64,000 bases of DNA from Candidatus Uhrbacteria bacterium RIFCSPLOWO2_01_FULL_47_17 (lineage in GTDB: Bacteria; Patescibacteriota; Patescibacteriia; UBA9934; GWF2-40-263): NCBI GenBank assembly GCA_001791305.1, contig MGEI01000005.1, positions 404,208 through 468,207 of the forward strand, in the 5' to 3' direction. The position numbers and the translations under genes are program-made. This document shows positions 23,213 to 30,009 of this stretch, in pieces. The first letter of the stretch is position 1. Each line of letters starts with the position of its first letter. Under the pieces are notes generated by a model. That model was not told the origin of the DNA, did no database searches, and worked only from the letters and a program-made list of their open reading frames with translations.

Positions 23213-24523
23213 ATGAACTTGGTGATCATCGGCACGGGCTATGTTGGCCTTACGTCTGCGCTCGGATATACACAACTCGGTCATCGTGTTGCGTGTGTTG
23301 ATGTGAATGCGGAAAAAATTGCGCAATTGGATCTGGGACATGTTCCGTTTTTTGAATCGGGTTTATCGGATGTTCTTCATACAGCGCAAGAAGCCGGTTC
23401 GATTATTTTTACGACAGACCTCGCATCTGTTTTGTCCGAAGCGGAACTTGTGTTGTTTGCCGTTGGAACACCGTCGGCCTCTACGGGCGAAGCGAACTTG
23501 TCGTTTTTATTGCATGCAGCGCGTGATGTTGGTCGTCATTTGGATCACGAAGTATTGCTCGTCGTGAAGAGTACGGTTCCGGTCGGAACAAATCGTCGTG
23601 TTCTTGAGGTCGCGCGCGAGGCGATGACCGTTGCCGGTCGAGGAGATCTCACAAGTTTGATTCAAATCGCGTCGCTCCCAGAATTTTTGCGAGAGGGAAG
23701 TGCCATTGCGGATTTTATGGCGCCGGAGCGAATCGTTGTTGGCGCGGATGATGACGTTGCCTATCGACTTGTGGAAGAACTCCATCGCGGCATTCAAACC
23801 ACATGGGTGAAGACAACGATCGAGACAGCAGAGCTTACGAAGTACGCGGCGAACGCAATGCTCGCAACAAAGATTTCGTTTATCAATGAGATCGCAAATA
23901 TCGCAGAGCGCACCGGAGCGAATGTGGTCGACATTGCGCATGCGATCGGACTCGACTCGAGAATCGGGCCGCATTTTTTGAACGCAGGCATCGGCTACGG
24001 TGGTTCATGCTTCCCGAAGGACGTCTCGGCGCTGCGACAAATTGCGGGCGCGAATGGATATGATTTTAAATTGTTGTCTGCTGTGATTGAGGTGAACAAT
24101 CATCAACGCGATCTTTTTTTGAAAAAAATTCAAGAGATGCTTGGAAACATGAAGGGCCGACGCATTGCGGTCTGGGGACTCGCGTTCAAACCGGGAACAG
24201 ATGATGTGCGTGAATCGGCGGCGATTGATCTTGTACGAAGACTCTACGCGATCGGTGCGGAAGTTTGCGCGTTTGATCCGCAAGCGATCGAGACGGCGCG
24301 AAAAATTTTGCCGGATGGAATTCAGTTCGCGGGAACCGCGATCGATGCAGCCGAAGGGGCAGAAGCACTCATCGTTCTTACCGAGTGGCCAGAGTTCCGC
24401 GATGTTTCATTCTCGACCCTCAAAGCACGCATGCTCGATCCGATTGTTTTTGATGGACGCAACTGCCTGAAAGATGCACACCTCGAAAAATTTGGATTCA
24501 CCTATGTTGGTGTCGGTATTTAA
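23213..24523 (+). CDS. ugd: UDP-glucose 6-dehydrogenase / nucleotide-sugar dehydrogenase
   Basis: MNLVIIGTGYVGLTSA NAD-binding motif and the catalytic GGSCFPKD. Confidence 0.85.
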   Translation: MNLVIIGTGYVGLTSALGYTQLGHRVACVDVNAEKIAQLDLGHVPFFESGLSDVLHTAQEAGSIIFTTDLASVLSEAELVLFAVGTPSASTGEANLSFLLHAARDVGRHLDHEVLLVVKSTVPVGTNRRVLEVAREAMTVAGRGDLTSLIQIASLPEFLREGSAIADFMAPERIVVGADDDVAYRLVEELHRGIQTTWVKTTIETAELTKYAANAMLATKISFINEIANIAERTGANVVDIAHAIGLDSRIGPHFLNAGIGYGGSCFPKDVSALRQIAGANGYDFKLLSAVIEVNNHQRDLFLKKIQEMLGNMKGRRIAVWGLAFKPGTDDVRESAAIDLVRRLYAIGAEVCAFDPQAIETARKILPDGIQFAGTAIDAAEGAEALIVLTEWPEFRDVSFSTLKARMLDPIVFDGRNCLKDAHLEKFGFTYVGVGI

Positions 24524-26036
24524 AAAGATCACAACATCGCCATCAAGAACATTCGCCCTTCTCGCGGCGATGTTTTGTTTCGGCATCCTCGTAGGTCCAC
24601 TCGCGATCGGCATCTCGACGTCGGTCTTCGGCGTGCTCCTCGCGATCTGTCTCCTGAGCTTCTCATTCATAGCCCCCTCTCCCTTCGAGGGAGAGGGCGG
24701 GGGGAGAGGGGTCACAAGTGCATCTTCTCGAAACACATTCCGCATCTTATGCCTTGCTCTCTTCTTCCTCGTCTTGGGATTATTTTGCTACCAACAAAGT
24801 GAAATTCCAAAAAACATTCCCACGGTTCGTGACTTCACCGGTTCTCAGATCCGCATCGAAGGTGATGTGATCGCCGAGTCATCCATCAAAACAAAATCAC
24901 AACAAGTGACAATTGGTCGCGTGAAAGTTGCTGACGTGCCCGTATTCGGAAACGTGCTCGTAACTGTCTTGAGGGAACAGTCGATCGCATACGGCGATCA
25001 CCTCGTCTTCTCTTGCTCCATGCAAATTCCACGACCATTCAGTGGATTCGCGTATGATCGCTTCCTCCAAGCAAAGGGAACCTTTGCGCTTTGTCGCTTT
25101 CCGCACGATCTCGAACGCGCGCCCTCGAATGCGTTCTCGCTTGTTGCTTCGATCCTCACATTCAAACGAGACGTTGTCTCAACCATGAAACACGTCTTTC
25201 CCGAACCGCATGCTTCGTTCCTCTTTGGTCTCGTCTTCGGAGGAAATGTTGGTCTTGAGCGAACGATCCAAGACGAGTTTCGAGAAACCGGCATGTCACA
25301 CATCCTCGCCGCCTCCGGTTTCAATGTCTCGCTTTTCACCTTCGTCTTCTTCGGCTGGATCGTTCAGCACCTCGGCCGTAAACGCGGCGCGATCGCAACC
25401 GCAATTTTGCTCGCTGTGTATGTGATCATGGCCGGCGCAACCGCCGCCGTGGTTCGCGCCGCAATCTTCGGAGGTGTTCTCCTTATCGGTTCCATGATCG
25501 GGCGACGCGCGTCGATCGTGAATACGCTTCTGCTCACCGCATCCGTCATGTTGTTTTACAATCCGCGTTGGCTCCTCGACGACGTTGGTTTTCAACTCTC
25601 GTTCGTCGCCTTCGCCGCAATCATTTTCATCGCGCCGCGTCTCGAAGAAAAACTCGAGTTCGTTCCCGAACACATCGGCATCCGCAACGCCCTCGCCGGT
25701 TCACTCTCTGCAATTTTTCTCACGCTTCCCATCATCCTCTGGCAGTTCGGCTCGATCTCGCTTGTCGCCCCATTCGCAAACGTTTTCGTGCTCCCACTCG
25801 TTCCATTCCTCATGTTCTACACAATCGCGATTCTGCCGATCGCCTGGCTTTCGACTTCCATCGGACAACTCATCGCTCTGCCGGCGCTCTTCGGATCGAA
25901 ATACATTCTCGCGATAGTCTCGATATTCGCCTCGCCAACATTCGCCTCCGTTTCCGTTCCGTTCGCGCAGACAGCCGCGGTCATCGTTGTGATTGGGCTC
26001 GCCATCGGATCCGTTGTCTTTTTTCGACGGGCGTGA
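24504..26036 (+). CDS. ComEC/Rec2-like membrane protein (DUF4131 plus competence domain)
   Basis: FGLVFGGNVGLERTIQDEFRETGMSHILAASGFNVSLF, the ComEC core, and multiple TM helices. An in-frame family-A repeat lies at 24672..24715. The start was taken at an internal Met because the long ORF overlaps the end of ugd. Confidence 0.6.
   Translation: MLVSVFKKITTSPSRTFALLAAMFCFGILVGPLAIGISTSVFGVLLAICLLSFSFIAPSPFEGEGGGRGVTSASSRNTFRILCLALFFLVLGLFCYQQSEIPKNIPTVRDFTGSQIRIEGDVIAESSIKTKSQQVTIGRVKVADVPVFGNVLVTVLREQSIAYGDHLVFSCSMQIPRPFSGFAYDRFLQAKGTFALCRFPHDLERAPSNAFSLVASILTFKRDVVSTMKHVFPEPHASFLFGLVFGGNVGLERTIQDEFRETGMSHILAASGFNVSLFTFVFFGWIVQHLGRKRGAIATAILLAVYVIMAGATAAVVRAAIFGGVLLIGSMIGRRASIVNTLLLTASVMLFYNPRWLLDDVGFQLSFVAFAAIIFIAPRLEEKLEFVPEHIGIRNALAGSLSAIFLTLPIILWQFGSISLVAPFANVFVLPLVPFLMFYTIAILPIAWLSTSIGQLIALPALFGSKYILAIVSIFASPTFASVSVPFAQTAAVIVVIGLAIGSVVFFRRA
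24672..24715. repeat. Family-A element in frame within the ComEC-like gene (encodes PSPFEGEGGGRGV)
   Basis: 43 of 44 nt are identical to the copy at 5152..5195. Confidence 0.75.
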
Positions 26037-26056
26037 TATCTTTGCGACAAATTCAT

Positions 26057-26080
26057 GCGGGGTCAGGGGACCCCGCCTAT
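26057..26080. repeat. Family-B palindrome (reverse orientation) GCGGGGTCaggGGACCCCGCCTAT between comEC and ndk
   Basis: Same core as 6722, 22715 and 34038. Confidence 0.6.
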
Positions 26081-26092
26081 AACATAAAATGT

Positions 26093-26551
26093 ATGGCCGA
26101 CATTCAACGCACCCTCGTTTTGCTTAAACCAGACGCGCTTCAGCGTGATTTGCTTGGGGAGATTCTTACGCGTTTTGAACGCAAAGGACTCAAAATCATC
26201 GGACTCAAGTTGTTCCAACTTTCAGACGAACAACTGAATGTGCACTACGCACACCTTGCGGAAAAATCCTTCTTCGCCGATTTGAAAAATTTTATGAAGC
26301 ACACACCGGTTGTCGGAATCGTGCTTGAAGGCATGGAAGCGGTTTCCGAAGTGCGCAAAATGATTGGTTCCACAAACCCATTGCAAGCGGATGCAGGAAC
26401 CGTGCGTGCAGATTTCTCGATGAACGTTTCATCGAACTTGGTGCATGCTTCCGACAGTCTCGAGAACGCCGCGGCAGAAGTTGCACGATTCTTTAAAGAA
26501 GAAGAATTGTTTACCTACGTAAAAATTACCGATCAATATATTTTCGGATAA
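26093..26551 (+). CDS. ndk: Nucleoside diphosphate kinase
   Basis: MADIQRTLVLLKPDALQR...NLVHASDS, with the catalytic His in NxxHxSD, in a 152-aa protein. Confidence 0.9.
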   Translation: MADIQRTLVLLKPDALQRDLLGEILTRFERKGLKIIGLKLFQLSDEQLNVHYAHLAEKSFFADLKNFMKHTPVVGIVLEGMEAVSEVRKMIGSTNPLQADAGTVRADFSMNVSSNLVHASDSLENAAAEVARFFKEEELFTYVKITDQYIFG

Positions 26552-26653
26552 TGCCATAAACAGCTCTGACGTCACGTCGGGGCTTTTTTGTTTGACAAAG
26601 CCCGTTCGTTTCTTTAAGGTCAAGCTATCGTTCTTTTACCAGTCGAGGGTCGC

Positions 26654-27802
26654 ATGATTGATTGGGCAACTCTGCAAGAATGGCAAACGGATTGGTTGCA
26701 TGTGGATCCGAGTCAGATCCAAAAACGTCGCAGGTTTTTGATCGATGCGCTCAGCCGCGAGCAAACACATGTCACGCGCGCGATGAATACGCTCAGAAAT
26801 GGTCGTCTGCGTTTGGTGCGTGAGTATGCGGATATTTTTACGGATCAGCTCGAGCTTGATTCGTCCGTTTCCACAACGCTCAATCCGCACCGATTACTCG
26901 AACTTGCCGAAAAGCCGTGGGCAGATCAAAAACCAGATGCGCAACGCTGGTTTGAGTCCATCAGTCGGTTTGATCAAGCGGTCGCGGTCGCAAAAATCGA
27001 AATGTCGGATTCGTACGAAATGCTCGCGCGCGACATCAACGATCTCATGGATTTTTTATGGGGACATTTGTTTGAACCTGTTTTTGAAAAGATCGAGGTC
27101 TATTGCTATCACGATCCGGCAACTGGGTACGCTGTTTCCGCCGAAGATGTCGGCATCGGTCATCATTTGTCACGACCGGGATTAAAACGCCGCAAATCGA
27201 ATTTGACCTGTCGAAAAACCATGAAGGGTGAACTCGCGTTTTTTCGCCATCGCATCAAAGACGCGTTTGACGCGTGGCTGAAATCGCAACGACAGGTTCA
27301 TGATCCGGAGAAAAAACATCCTTACACGGTGTATGATCGCTGCGGGCTCACATTCATTGTTCCGACCATGATGGAGTTGCATGACGTAGCTCTTCAAATC
27401 GTCGAGCTGTTGCTCGATCACGGAGGAACGGAGATTGAACCGCTCGATACGAATTTTGTTGCGGAACAGTCGATCGACGCAACGAATCGTCAATCTTCAC
27501 CTGCCTACAAAGCCGCAAAGACCCTGATTCAATTTCGCGGACGCGTGTACGAATTTCAGTTCCTGACATTTCATGATTACTTCACAAGTAAGCGTTCCTT
27601 GAATGATTCAAATCATGATTTGTATCGTTTGCGACAAACGCTCAAATACTTCTTGCCACTTCTGTGGCCAAAAGAAATTTACGCGGTCGATTGGGGGAAT
27701 CCTCACATCATCTCCTCGCTCCGCAAATGGAAAATCAATCAACTTGGTTTGCGTGTGAACGGAAAACACACATCCACACATGAGTCTTCTGAAGATCCTT
27801 GA
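26654..27802 (+). CDS. RelA/SpoT-like nucleotidyltransferase-fold protein (small alarmone synthetase / toxSAS-like)
   Basis: RHRIKDAFDAWLKS...VYDRCGLTFIV parallels RvKs..Si..Kl...iyDi.g.RiIV, and GRVYEFQFLTFHDY parallels vEvQIRT..mH. An unrecognised ~190-aa domain sits upstream of it. Confidence 0.4.
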   Translation: MIDWATLQEWQTDWLHVDPSQIQKRRRFLIDALSREQTHVTRAMNTLRNGRLRLVREYADIFTDQLELDSSVSTTLNPHRLLELAEKPWADQKPDAQRWFESISRFDQAVAVAKIEMSDSYEMLARDINDLMDFLWGHLFEPVFEKIEVYCYHDPATGYAVSAEDVGIGHHLSRPGLKRRKSNLTCRKTMKGELAFFRHRIKDAFDAWLKSQRQVHDPEKKHPYTVYDRCGLTFIVPTMMELHDVALQIVELLLDHGGTEIEPLDTNFVAEQSIDATNRQSSPAYKAAKTLIQFRGRVYEFQFLTFHDYFTSKRSLNDSNHDLYRLRQTLKYFLPLLWPKEIYAVDWGNPHIISSLRKWKINQLGLRVNGKHTSTHESSEDP

Positions 27803-27824
27803 ACGGGGATCTTTTTTTGATCGG

Positions 27825-27853
27825 TTGACAGGTATCACTCCATCACGTATTCT
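27825..27853 (+). promoter_or_regulatory. Promoter TTGACA-N17-TATTCT
   Basis: TTGACAggtatcactccatcacgTATTCT, 34 nt upstream of the 27887 ATG. Confidence 0.45.
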
Positions 27854-27886
27854 TTTGCTCGCGTGCGTGCACGCTTGGGGGTTCTC

Positions 27887-28357
27887 ATGATGACAGAATT
27901 CAAGCTCCGCTTCGGTCAGCTCACGAAAAAGGCCCGTGTGATGTTCATGGAAGGGAACATCACGTTCGGGCAGGCGCACCAGTTCTCGACGGCTCGGCAT
28001 CGGTTTCGGAAGGTGCAACTGAACGACCTCACTCGTCGTCACATCGATCATCACACCGAGATTCTCAAGTCCCTGCCGTTCATCACGTACTCGATCCAGT
28101 CGGTCGATGATTTGATGCATGAGATCTCGCGTCTTCCGCGTGCGATCCAGCATGCGATCATGAGCGGACAACTGACTCTCGTGCAAGCGCGCTACGCTCG
28201 CGAGCGCTCGCTCGGACGCAAAGACATCGCGGCGCTCACGTCGCGCAACGCAACCGATCTCATCACCGCACCCGTCACGCGCCCGGTTCGCAAAGCCCCG
28301 CGTGACCTCGTCCCGCTCCGCCGCCCGTCCTCGCCGCGCATCCCCACGCGTCGATAG
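27887..28357 (+). CDS. Hypothetical basic protein (156 aa), GC-rich
   Basis: Has its own promoter and a GGGG SD; the sequence is Arg-rich. The overlapping minus-strand ORF 27608..28186 was rejected. Confidence 0.3.
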   Translation: MMTEFKLRFGQLTKKARVMFMEGNITFGQAHQFSTARHRFRKVQLNDLTRRHIDHHTEILKSLPFITYSIQSVDDLMHEISRLPRAIQHAIMSGQLTLVQARYARERSLGRKDIAALTSRNATDLITAPVTRPVRKAPRDLVPLRRPSSPRIPTRR

Positions 28358-28707
28358 TCTCCTCGATCCTGATTCGTCAGGGTTTTTTTGTTGTGCATAA
28401 CCAGTTCATAACAAGTGCATAAGTTTGGTTGATTTTCCTTGAGCCTTTTTCATTTTCGAGATACAGTTAAATTGCCTCCCGGGCTAGCGGGTGCCCTCAA
28501 CTATGCCCTTCCAAGACGGTTTCGCGTTTTGCCTGCAAAACAAGAAACTCACGGATGTTTCTCATTTCGATGTTGGCGTCGTGGAGCGACCCCTCTACCT
28601 CAACCGCATCCAATGAGGAAGAGACGAATACTTCATCGCATTTTGTCTCTTCACCGATTTTCCTCATGGTCCTCGAGGAACACCCGTTTTCCCGCCAGGC
28701 GCCAAAA

Positions 28708-28737
28708 AATCCTCTTCCCTTCGGAGAGGATTTTTTG
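28708..28737 (+). terminator. Strong hairpin plus T-run in the long noncoding gap
   Basis: AATCCTCTtcccttcggAGAGGATT followed by TTTT. Confidence 0.5.
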
Positions 28738-28865
28738 ATTTTGATTGGATGATCCTTGGATTTTGGTAATCAACCAAGATTGTTTGACAAAAAGCCCAAA
28801 ACGCGATAGTCTTTTCTCTCGCGTTTTTGTTTTGCGAGACGTATTGTCATAACCACGGAGGAGAG

Positions 28866-29189
28866 ATGATCTACTGTCTCATGACGTCCATTGGTCTTAC
28901 CGAGGAGATTCGTTGGTGCTTGTTTGATCAAGCACGTGAATTGATCAGTCTTGGTCGGGAGCGGTGCAACATCGCCTCAGATTTTTTGGAAGGATATGTC
29001 GCGACAACTGGTAAGACCTGTGCACTTGGTGGAGTGATCGGCGTTCAGTTCGAGGCGTATGTGGAATCCAATCGCGGCAAAGGCTTGGTGCGATACCTCG
29101 TCCGTACGGGCGATCTTCCGGATCGCGAAAAACTCGCTTGGGCCTCACTTGATCCCGAACAGGGTACAGCCAAACAGGACGTGAACTAA
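28866..29189 (+). CDS. Hypothetical protein (107 aa)
   Basis: GGAGGAG SD before the ATG (MIYCLMTSIG...) and a terminator hairpin ACAGACGCatgaaGCGTCTGT plus T5 after the stop. Confidence 0.35.
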   Translation: MIYCLMTSIGLTEEIRWCLFDQARELISLGRERCNIASDFLEGYVATTGKTCALGGVIGVQFEAYVESNRGKGLVRYLVRTGDLPDREKLAWASLDPEQGTAKQDVN

Positions 29190-29226
29190 CCTTACAGACG
29201 CATGAATGCGTCTGTTTTTCTTTTGT

Positions 29227-29390
29227 TTGACATATGGTTTTGTATCGCGTATGTTGAATGTAACAAGTTTATGTTGAAACAAGTATTTCTCAATTCCGTT
29301 CACCATATTCGCCCTTCCGCCTGAAGGTCTGTGTTTCTGTTGTTTAAAAAAACAAAAACACCCTTCCAGGTCGGAAGGGTGTTTTTGTTT
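29227..29390 (+). ncRNA. Candidate small RNA: promoter TTGACA-N17-TATGTT (29227..29255) to a rho-independent terminator (29358..29390)
   Basis: There is no plausible ORF. The ~130-nt transcript ends at ACACCCTTCCaggtcGGAAGGGTGT followed by TTTTGTTTT. A family-A repeat and the GNAT start follow. Confidence 0.35.
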
Positions 29391-29401
29391 TGGGCGTCCC
29401 A

Positions 29402-29445
29402 GCCCCCTCTTCTCATCGAGGAGAGGGCGGGGGGAGAGGTGTCCC
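29402..29445. repeat. Family-A variant element immediately upstream of the GNAT start codon
   Basis: GCCCCCTCTTCTCATCGAGGAGAGGGCGGGGGGAGAGGTGTCCC, directly followed by the ATG. Confidence 0.65.
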
Positions 29446-30009
29446 ATGCGTATTCGTCGATTGAATTTCAGTGATCTTCGGCAAGTGGTTCTGTTGTATT
29501 GCGGGTGTTTCACAGAAGCTCCGTGGTTCGAATGCTTCGATCCGGAAGAAGTGTGGCAAGAGTTCGTGTTGCTGTTTGCGCAAGCGCTTCCAAAAAAGGT
29601 TCGTGCAAAACACAAAGAACGCGCAGAGTTTCTCGTATGTGAAAATGAGGGTCAAATCGTGGGCGCTGCGATCGGATTTCCAATGGCTCAGAAACCAGAT
29701 GTCGCCACCCTTGTGACGACAGACACGGAACACACATTTTATTTTTCCGAACTGTTCGTGAGTTCGATGTATCGCAAGCAAGGTGTCGCGAAAGCGCTGA
29801 TTCGTGCGCGTATGAAAAAAGCTCGCGCGCGCGGGTTCACACACGGCGTGGTGCGCACCTCGATTGCGCAGTCCGTCATTCAACATCTCTATGTCGACGA
29901 GCTCGGGTTTTCGATCGTTGCGACACAAGAGGTCACATCGACAAAAGTGATCGATGGCGTGAAACAGGACGTCCCTGACACGCGTGTGATCATGGCCGGA
30001 AAAATCTAG
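29446..30009 (+). CDS. GNAT family N-acetyltransferase
   Basis: Motif A VSSMYRKQGVAKALI in a 187-aa protein. Two hairpin terminators follow (30006..30030, 30041..30075). Confidence 0.6.
   Translation: MRIRRLNFSDLRQVVLLYCGCFTEAPWFECFDPEEVWQEFVLLFAQALPKKVRAKHKERAEFLVCENEGQIVGAAIGFPMAQKPDVATLVTTDTEHTFYFSELFVSSMYRKQGVAKALIRARMKKARARGFTHGVVRTSIAQSVIQHLYVDELGFSIVATQEVTSTKVIDGVKQDVPDTRVIMAGKI

Follow-up and report, generated by a model that had tools for sequence, protein, structure and literature searches.

The locus described here lies in a window of 64,000 nucleotides (contig MGEI01000005.1, positions 404,208 to 468,207) from Candidatus Uhrbacteria bacterium RIFCSPLOWO2_01_FULL_47_17, a member of the candidate phyla radiation (CPR, Patescibacteria). 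All coordinates below are positions in this window. Its central gene is an open reading frame (ORF) with an ATG start at 26654..27802 (+), whose 382-aa product is predicted to be a divergent pyrophosphokinase of the RelA/SpoT homologue (RSH) superfamily. The N-terminus of the product is kept from residue 1 across 19 homologues, which supports the start site. The gene for nucleoside diphosphate kinase (ndk, 26126..26551, +; PF00334, E=2.2e-46) lies directly upstream, and a gene for a basic protein of 156 aa (the small gene) follows at 27887..28357 (+). An earlier reading of the DNA, here called the original prediction, had described a RelA/SpoT-like ORF after ndk and quoted motifs of its product; the ORF list and the PF00334 match confirmed the ORF, the motifs and the position of ndk.

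Fold and active site of the 382-aa protein

The family is out of reach of standard annotation. The 382-aa protein had no match in Pfam, NCBIfam or PADLOC even at E<=10, and this includes PF04607 (RelA_SpoT), the profile whose failure to match the original prediction had named as evidence against itself. Searching PDB sequences with the single sequence, or with a profile of 20 close homologues (A1), gave nothing relevant, and hhalign found no match between A1 and RelQ. The bridge to RSH enzymes was reached only through profiles that include distant relatives. A profile of the 137-sequence family alignment (A2) was searched against PDB sequences with hmmsearch and matched Rel 8acu (2.7e-6) and 6yxa (1e-5), both of the B. 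subtilis type, E. coli RelA 5iqr (2.6e-5) and RelSeq 1vj7 (7.4e-5). In this alignment the family consensus 'RvKdpfdtllKm…DrrGlrfvv' stood against 'RPKHIYSIYRKM…DLLAVRILV', with R-x-K...K...D aligned. The profile of the 83 most distant members alone (A5) found the same PDB Rel and RelA matches (3.5e-5). Against B. subtilis RelQ, which is identical to PDB 5DED over residues 2-211 and served as the RelQ reference throughout, hhalign gave E=9.4e-5 for A2 and E=3.1e-5 for A5, in one consistent register across Syn1-Syn4. PF04607 was also the most recurrent Pfam family among the distant members (13/83, best 3.8e-5), all 13 matches falling under the 27-bit gathering cut-off.

The fold was examined in an AlphaFold2 (AF2) model, which had a predicted local distance difference test score (pLDDT) of 90.1 and a predicted template modelling score of 0.86. 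The top 25 PDB matches of this model in Foldseek were nearly all RSH synthetase domains (probability 0.72-1.0), among them S. aureus Rel, RelSeq, RelQ, CapRel, RelP, an exported small alarmone synthetase (SAS), FaRel2 and SpoT. These matches are weak by E-value (1e-3 or weaker) and by template modelling (TM) score (0.2-0.46). The synthetase core claimed in the original prediction, which had proposed structure prediction as a check, is thus the point on which the family profile, hhalign and Foldseek agree. On the combined profile and model evidence, the fold and the assignment to the RSH superfamily are very probably correct.

It could be argued that the protein is no true RSH enzyme: a convergent protein of nucleotidyltransferase or other alpha/beta fold, or a dead pseudoenzyme. 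The empty Pfam, NCBIfam and PADLOC results, the empty single-sequence and A1 searches and the low TM-scores would fit such a protein. We consider this very unlikely, as four independent lines of evidence all lead to RSH and place the residues in one register, and R-x-K...K, D-x-x-G and E-x-Q are near-invariant in the 137 sequences, which argues for retained catalysis. The classical nucleotidyltransferase pattern, hG[GS]...D-x-D, is different from these RSH motifs.

The synthetase-like catalytic core was placed at aa 194-345 (27233..27688, +) by hmmsearch to Rel, hhalign to RelQ and residue conservation. Its motifs are R200-x-K202...K210..R213; D228-x-x-G231; D275..N278..S281-S282..Y285...K289; E300-x-Q302..T305; and N320-H321..Y324. 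Conservation was counted in the 137 family members, whose overall identity is 17-25% at the extremes. The Syn1 pattern R-x-K-x3-S-x3-K(-x2-R) is found in the family with a variable Ser position (D/S/E/G), and it contains R200 (RelQ R46; 128/137), K202 (RelQ K48; 137/137), K210 (RelQ K56; 132/137) and R213 (Arg in 67 and Lys in 19 members). D228, the predicted Mg2+-coordinating Asp (RelQ D72, FaRel2 D90; codon 27335..27337, +), occurs in all 137, and G231 (RelQ G75) is Gly in 105 and Ala in 23. E300, the predicted catalytic Glu (RelQ E139, FaRel2 E145; codon 27551..27553, +), is kept in 136/137, Q302 (RelQ Q141) in 104/137 and T305 (RelQ T144) in 64/137. High conservation was also observed for N278 (127/137), S281 (122/137), H321 (125/137) and Y324 (135/137). 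Equivalents of the catalytic Asp and Glu, which the original prediction had set as its test, are therefore present on the alignment.

The reference for the roles of these residues is FaRel2 (Dominguez-Molina et al. 2024, PMC11782079), of which R64, K66, K74, R77, D90, G93, Y128, E145 and Q147 have equivalents in the window protein. In FaRel2, R64/K66/S70/K74/R77 hold the ATP triphosphate and D90 holds Mg2+; G93, R95 and Q147 contact adenine, and the acceptor base is stacked by Y128. The Syn4 glutamate, E145, is credited with adenosine specificity, and Y128F is a catalytically impairing substitution (PMC11782079). Judged by its residues, the 382-aa protein is likely to be an active enzyme.

On the alignment the donor site looks canonical, in contrast to the acceptor site. 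The G-loop, longer by about 9 residues than in RelQ, carries a signature of its own, D275-x-x-N278-x-x-S281-S282. At the acceptor-stacking position, Y285 (RelQ Y116), Tyr and Phe are each found in 56 of 137 members. The Syn3 His (RelQ H120) is replaced by K289, a position with Lys in 102 and Arg in 15 members. Where Syn2 has its adenine-stacking Arg, the window protein has Thr and 65/137 members have Lys or Arg, and of Syn4 (E-x-Q-x-R-T) the Glu and Gln are kept and the Arg is not conserved. Because several canonical residues differ, including the Tyr to Phe change at the stacking position, the acceptor may be other than canonical GDP/GTP. The protein could then be an RSH-fold pyrophosphokinase acting on tRNA at its 3'-CCA end (as CapRel and FaRel2 do), on a protein such as NDK or on another metabolite, with a role as a housekeeping regulator of translation or nucleotide metabolism. 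The longer loop with its D-x-x-N-x-x-S-S signature, the Tyr/Phe position and the Lys for His all agree with this idea. CapRel and FaRel2 were no closer to the family than Rel and RelQ in the fold and profile searches, which speaks against it.

The first ~190 residues, described in the original prediction as having no recognisable family, indeed gave no match in the Pfam, NCBIfam, PADLOC and PDB sequence searches. The AF2 model divides them into an all-helical, family-specific domain (aa 1-138; 26654..27067, +; pLDDT ~90) and a beta-rich segment (aa 139-193; 27068..27232, +; strands 140-154, 166-168 and 178-189) that precedes the core and is not found in canonical SAS. The helical domain carries the motifs R98-W-F100-E101 and F106-D-Q, with F100 in 99/137 and E101 in 112/137 members, and R187 of the beta-rich segment is present in 121/137. 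Since most members align from profile position ~35-65 onward, the N-terminal domain is part of the family. No HD signature was seen in the N-terminal alignment, and Pfam gave no HD_4, TGS or ACT match in the 382-aa protein. Long Foldseek alignments onto the N-terminal regions of Rel had a TM of only ~0.3, and because of this low global similarity to long Rel the modelled domain is not demonstrably a degenerate hydrolase domain. The helical domain and the extra beta-strands could form a macromolecule-binding surface, as would suit a tRNA or protein acceptor; a parallel is the ordered N-terminal region of FaRel2, which is not in RelP and takes part in tRNA recognition (PMC11782079).

Compared with known enzymes, the window protein resembles RelQ and RelP in its core topology, beta(RxK)-alpha(K)-beta(DxxG)-alpha-beta-beta(Y)-beta(ExQ)-alpha-alpha(H..Y), in the nine RelQ residues that align with it (R46, K48, K56, D72, G75, Y116, E139, Q141 and T144) and, like SAS in general, in being synthetase-only, without HD hydrolase, TGS or ACT domains. 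Unlike RelQ and RelP, it has no PF04607 match, ~190 extra N-terminal residues, the longer G-loop with its D..N..SS signature and Lys for the Syn3 His, and it is without the arginines of Syn2 and Syn4. Half of its family has Phe for the acceptor Tyr, and the family is confined to Patescibacteria and linked to ndk. The best profile and Foldseek matches of the family are the long Rel/RelA enzymes (6yxa/8acu, 1vj7 and S. aureus Rel 7oiw), which share with it an alpha-helical N-terminal region followed by a synthetase core. In contrast to their ~730 aa, the window protein has 382 aa and is without HD, TGS, helical, ZFD and RRM/ACT domains.

Family distribution and genomic neighbourhood

An exhaustive profile search collected 243 cluster representatives of the family, 130 of them at E<=1e-10. 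The named database members and genome matches were labelled 'Candidatus Uhrbacteria' or 'Patescibacteria group' metagenome-assembled genomes, and were annotated as 'hypothetical protein'. Five of the compared loci (L003, L006, L007, L010 and L012; L and P numbers are our labels for loci and representatives) come from third party annotation assemblies titled 'uncultured Gammaproteobacteria bacterium', yet carry the Uhrbacteria-type UGDH-ComEC-NDK synteny; their label is probably a placeholder or an error. No relative of the 382-aa protein was found on the viral contigs, phage genomes and plasmids searched. With RelQ or a Rel fragment as query, phmmer detected no canonical RSH enzyme in the 276 kb compared, a sample too small for genome-level absence.

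In 11 genome loci the genes stand in the collinear order UGDH-ComEC-NDK-RSH-like gene, with identities of the RSH-like protein as low as 35%, which speaks for a chromosomal position inherited vertically. Counted from the RSH-like genes, and therefore ascertained, ndk adjoins the gene in 17/21 loci including the window, or in 15/17 once the near-duplicate contig pairs L014/L015 and L016/L017 are merged. The adjacent ndk of L012 runs on the opposite strand. Among the distant relatives, P0076, P0090, P0097 and P0170 also have ndk adjacent, in different surroundings (RNase III-NusB-L32-NDK-gene), and in one of these loci ndk is divergently oriented. The exceptions are P0012, the NUDIX fusion P0140 and the partial locus L013. 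The close neighbourhood of the two genes may point to physical contact with NDK itself, or to regulation, and can be counted for an acceptor other than a free alarmone precursor.

Some side observations were made in these neighbourhoods. P0012 (JGI 3300072015), a 59% identical homologue, lies in a stress-response neighbourhood of the order hrcA-grpE-dnaK-dnaJ-tgt-[gene]-125-aa unknown-clpB. The NDK proteins beside the distant members in L016, L018 and L019 have 194-282 aa versus 141-152 aa in the window clade, and this length implies N-terminal extensions. L003 (3707-5001) and L008 (3399-4734) have an insert of about 1.2-1.3 kb that separates ndk from the RSH-like gene; the L003 insert encodes a membrane-like ORF of ~319 aa and the L008 insert contains a run of N.

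A degrading arm may accompany the synthetase in some relatives. Three distant representatives of ~740 aa, P0128, P0140 and P0157 (L014:6001-8220), have a C-terminal NUDIX domain fused to the RSH-like protein. In L019 a stand-alone NUDIX gene lies directly downstream of the RSH-like gene (E=1.5e-18), and in L011 a MazG protein is encoded ~1.1 kb away (E=6.7e-11). The fusion P0140 is located on an 811-kb scaffold beside photolyase and pyruvate kinase genes, without ndk. NUDIX and MazG enzymes are known (p)ppGpp pyrophosphohydrolases (e.g. NahA, NudG/MutT, Ndx8, MazG), and in known systems they are unlinked housekeeping enzymes. To our knowledge, a covalent RSH-like-NUDIX fusion is not among the described architectures. 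By analogy, the fused or adjoining arrangement suggests a synthetase/hydrolase pairing comparable to SYNTH/HD; the window protein itself is without such a partner. Overall the family is unannotated, lineage-restricted and architecturally apart from other RSH enzymes, with an unusual linkage to ndk and an occasional NUDIX fusion.

These associations favour a small-nucleotide product. They fit it better than they fit a tRNA, protein or other non-canonical acceptor; the histidine-phosphatase-superfamily neighbour of the gene in L020 can be counted on the side of such an acceptor. We regard an acceptor of this kind as improbable.

The small basic protein and the proposed function

The three genes are predicted to be three monocistronic units, because an arrangement of terminator and promoter is kept both after ndk and after the RSH-like gene. 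The scan found a terminator-like hairpin with a T-run 3' of ndk (26562..26584, +), which has an equivalent in most orthologous loci. It is followed by a promoter-like element of the RSH-like gene, TTGACA-N17-TAAGGT (26592..26620, +), which was read from the sequence and whose weak -10 box scores under the threshold of the promoter scan. At the same position, TTGACA-N17-TA(A/G/C)(A/G/T)GT is found in 7/11 other loci; beyond these seven, L006 and L007 have TTGACA with an off-pattern -10. Another terminator-like hairpin with a T-run stands right after the stop codon of the RSH-like gene (27791..27814, +), and occurs in the same place in 7/8 orthologous loci. A third one (28365..28384, +; scan) follows the small gene.

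The canonical promoter claimed for the small gene, TTGACA-N17-TATTCT, was found by the promoter scan at 27825..27853 (+). Alone it is not above chance, with 4 such sites found against 3.5 expected. A perfect TTGACA with TAnnnT and a 17/18-nt spacer is however kept at the same position in 8/8 loci that have the small gene, despite diverged flanks, and for this reason we take the promoter as real. The ATG of the small gene at 27887 agrees with the N-termini of the orthologues ('MMTEF'); an in-frame GTG is present upstream at 27863. The gap between the two genes is 84-127 nt across the 8 loci. Perfect TTGACA -35 boxes with 17-nt spacers were observed before nearly every gene in 26592-29255 (at 26592, 27825, 28784 and 29227). 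Orthologous loci likewise have TTGACA before nearly every gene, and most of their genes end with a hairpin and T-run. In these CPR genomes the -35 element thus seems to be very canonical and the -10 box variable.

The small gene is Arg-rich and GC-richer than its surroundings, as the original prediction had stated: its product contains 14.1% Arg with a net charge of +17, and its GC content is 0.607 (0.758 at third codon positions) versus a window mean of 0.49 (standard deviation 0.049), a value reached by only 0.4% of 471-bp windows. The orthologues have a GC content of 0.51-0.59 versus 0.47-0.49 for their loci in 5/6 cases. Recent horizontal transfer was considered as the source of the high GC and rejected, since most orthologues are GC-enriched too; high GC appears to be a property of this gene family. 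A helical unit of ~40 aa, with the motif G-x-[IL]-T-[LF]-x-[QE]-A, occurs twice in the protein, and this internal repeat has an HH probability of 82.6% (E=9.6e-6). The AF2 model of the small protein had a pLDDT of 68.9, with a disordered Arg/Pro-rich tail at 110-156. Pfam gave a weak HTH_ParB match (E=0.027) and PADLOC a weak E1-E2 match (E=0.005), and no significant match was obtained in PDB sequences or, with the pLDDT-69 model, in Foldseek. The family is tiny, consisting of 4 database matches and the orthologues in L002-L008. A profile search placed it immediately after the RSH-like gene in 8 loci (the window and L002-L008), and neither it nor a conserved substitute was present in L001, L009, L011, L012 and L014-L020.

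Pairwise identities placed the enzyme and the small protein in matching allele groups: {window, L003, L004}, {L002, L005, L008} and {L006, L007}. Across groups the enzymes share ~46% identity and the small proteins 25-37%, and the same genomes have 83-95% identity in the flanking UGDH and NDK. For L002 versus L003, for example, identity is 94 for UGDH, 86 for ComEC and 93 for NDK, against 47 for the enzyme and 37 for the small protein. In pairwise identity, neither NDK (Spearman rho -0.14) nor ComEC (0.02) correlates with the enzyme. The housekeeping genes UGDH, ComEC and NDK also differ from one another in how they rank the genomes by similarity (UGDH versus NDK: rho 0.19; window 23213-26551 and L001-L011), and recombination therefore seems general in the region. 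This pattern suggests frequent homologous recombination, with breakpoints between genes, among close Uhrbacteria genomes. Within conserved surroundings, the enzyme and the small gene seem to form a cassette that is hypervariable or recombines. Because the two proteins co-diversify, a functional partnership between them is possible.

Such a partnership was the first proposal of the original prediction, which suggested a toxin with a partner as in FaRel or CapRel systems. The 382-aa protein would then be like a toxic SAS (toxSAS), the 156-aa protein its antitoxin or immunity protein, and the pair a conflict module fixed at one chromosomal site, with a strong promoter of its own for the antitoxin. 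The two genes are neighbours in 8 loci, and their matching allele groups are discordant with the conserved neighbours, as in toxin/immunity pairs. The -10 box of the small gene is nearer to the consensus than that of the enzyme, and the helical repeats of the small protein are HTH-like (the HTH_ParB match above), as in many type II antitoxins. In a distant branch, a 61-aa ORF (L016:5221-5406, L017:1318-1503) with a weak ribbon-helix-helix match (RHH_4, E=0.064) shares 4 nt with the start of P0097, one of the distant relatives, a toxin-antitoxin-like arrangement. The strongest point for a conflict-type function is the fast, neighbour-discordant co-diversification itself, which fits a conflict system better than it fits a housekeeping signalling enzyme.

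However, the gene organisation did not agree with a toxin-antitoxin operon. toxSAS loci are conserved, often overlapping operons of 2-3 genes (Jimmy et al. 2020, PMC7229694). The enzyme shares its synthetase fold with FaRel, FaRel2, PhRel and CapRel, and like them has a small, fast-evolving, co-diversifying neighbour. Unlike toxSAS pairs, the window genes do not overlap and are separated by a conserved terminator and promoter, and the partner is dispensable in many lineages: it is missing from L001, L009, L011, L012 and every distant relative. The small protein showed no likeness to the known antitoxin classes pZFD, Tis1-like, SAH and Panacea or to any PDB fold, as far as its low-confidence model allows. 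The family stays at a syntenic chromosomal site and was found without phage, plasmid or other mobile-element association, and PADLOC gave no CapRel match. A bicistronic operon, a constant antitoxin and a patchy or mobile distribution, all expected of toxSAS, were thus not seen. We consider the toxin-antitoxin explanation, and with it the first proposal, unlikely.

The favoured explanation is instead close to the second proposal of the original prediction, a novel (pp)pApp/(p)ppGpp signalling module, of which the synthetase core and the catalytic residues were found and the activity and product are what we infer. In this explanation, to which we give an even chance, the protein is a catalytically active pyrophosphokinase of the RSH superfamily, specific to the CPR, which works together with NDK and whose product is an alarmone-type nucleotide, and the small protein is a separate modulator. 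That the product is a nucleotide alarmone has by itself slightly less than an even chance. ATP would bind in the donor site via R200, K202, K210 and R213, with Mg2+ held by D228, and E300 would assist the transfer of the beta,gamma-pyrophosphate from ATP to the ribose 3'-OH of the acceptor. The acceptor would be held by the remodelled, longer G-loop, D275-x-x-N278-x-x-S281-S282-x-x-Y/F285-x-x-x-K289. A purine nucleotide is the likeliest acceptor, and the product would then be an alarmone of the (p)ppGpp or (p)ppApp type. The adjacent NDK would set the substrate pool, and in some relatives the fused or neighbouring NUDIX or MazG pyrophosphohydrolases would turn the product over. The RSH-like gene would act as its own transcription unit at a fixed chromosomal site after ndk. 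The 156-aa protein, made from the stronger conserved promoter, would be a clade-specific modulator or binding partner and no obligatory antitoxin.

Several observations weigh against this explanation. They are the absence of a PF04607 match and the weak Foldseek scores of the window protein, the changes in Syn2, Syn3, Syn4 and the acceptor-stacking position, which may indicate a different acceptor, and the conflict-like co-diversification described above. There are few NUDIX/MazG associations, namely three fusions, one gene next to the RSH-like gene and one in its vicinity. Linkage to ndk was ascertained from the RSH-like genes, and a ComEC-anchored scan meant to be free of this bias returned only L021, a truncated copy of the L008 region, and was uninformative.

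RSH enzymes are the central stress-signalling enzymes of bacteria, and their inventory has been built by hidden Markov model (HMM) searches. The CPR makes up a large share of bacterial diversity, and its members have minimal genomes, reportedly without de novo nucleotide synthesis. In the library of papers that could be searched, no paper was found tying alarmones or the stringent response to CPR/Patescibacteria, and nothing relevant on a coupling of SAS, NDK and NUDIX. We tentatively consider, as a possible and rather doubtful extension, that Patescibacteria have their own cryptic alarmone system with an RSH-like synthetase beside ndk, a NUDIX/MazG degrading arm and, in some Uhrbacteria, a small modulator. 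If true, this system would replace or supplement canonical Rel, and its product might be non-canonical in view of the changes in the acceptor loop. These ultra-small episymbionts would then have their first defined stringent-response-like signalling pathway, and a class of RSH enzymes would be invisible to HMM-based censuses. The conserved, ndk-coupled enzyme offers a testable handle on how CPR bacteria sense or control their nucleotide status. The altered acceptor site and the NUDIX fusions could reveal a new product or synthetase/hydrolase architecture, and the co-diversifying small partner a new mode of regulating or neutralising RSH enzymes.

Intergenic stretch downstream of the small gene

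The long noncoding stretch noticed in the original prediction corresponds to ~1.09 kb without a conserved ORF 3' of the small gene. Its first part, 28400-28740 (~340 nt), has no conserved ORF, no Rfam match and no conservation in the syntenic loci, and could be an unannotated small RNA or a remnant. Its end is formed by a strong, apparently bidirectional terminator at 28703-28737, with a 15-bp stem between an A-run and a T-run. A 107-aa ORF follows at 28866-29189, with TTGACA upstream at 28784-28789, a weak -10 (TAGTCT) and a good terminator at 29194-29215. No homologue of this ORF was found in any syntenic locus, and it is either an orphan gene or spurious. Rfam gave only sub-threshold hairpin matches in the downstream stretch, located at 29340-29445. 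This region is a palindromic hairpin upstream of a GNAT acetyltransferase gene (29446-30009), and is the only part of the 1.09-kb stretch that is conserved at the DNA level, in L004, L005 and L008.

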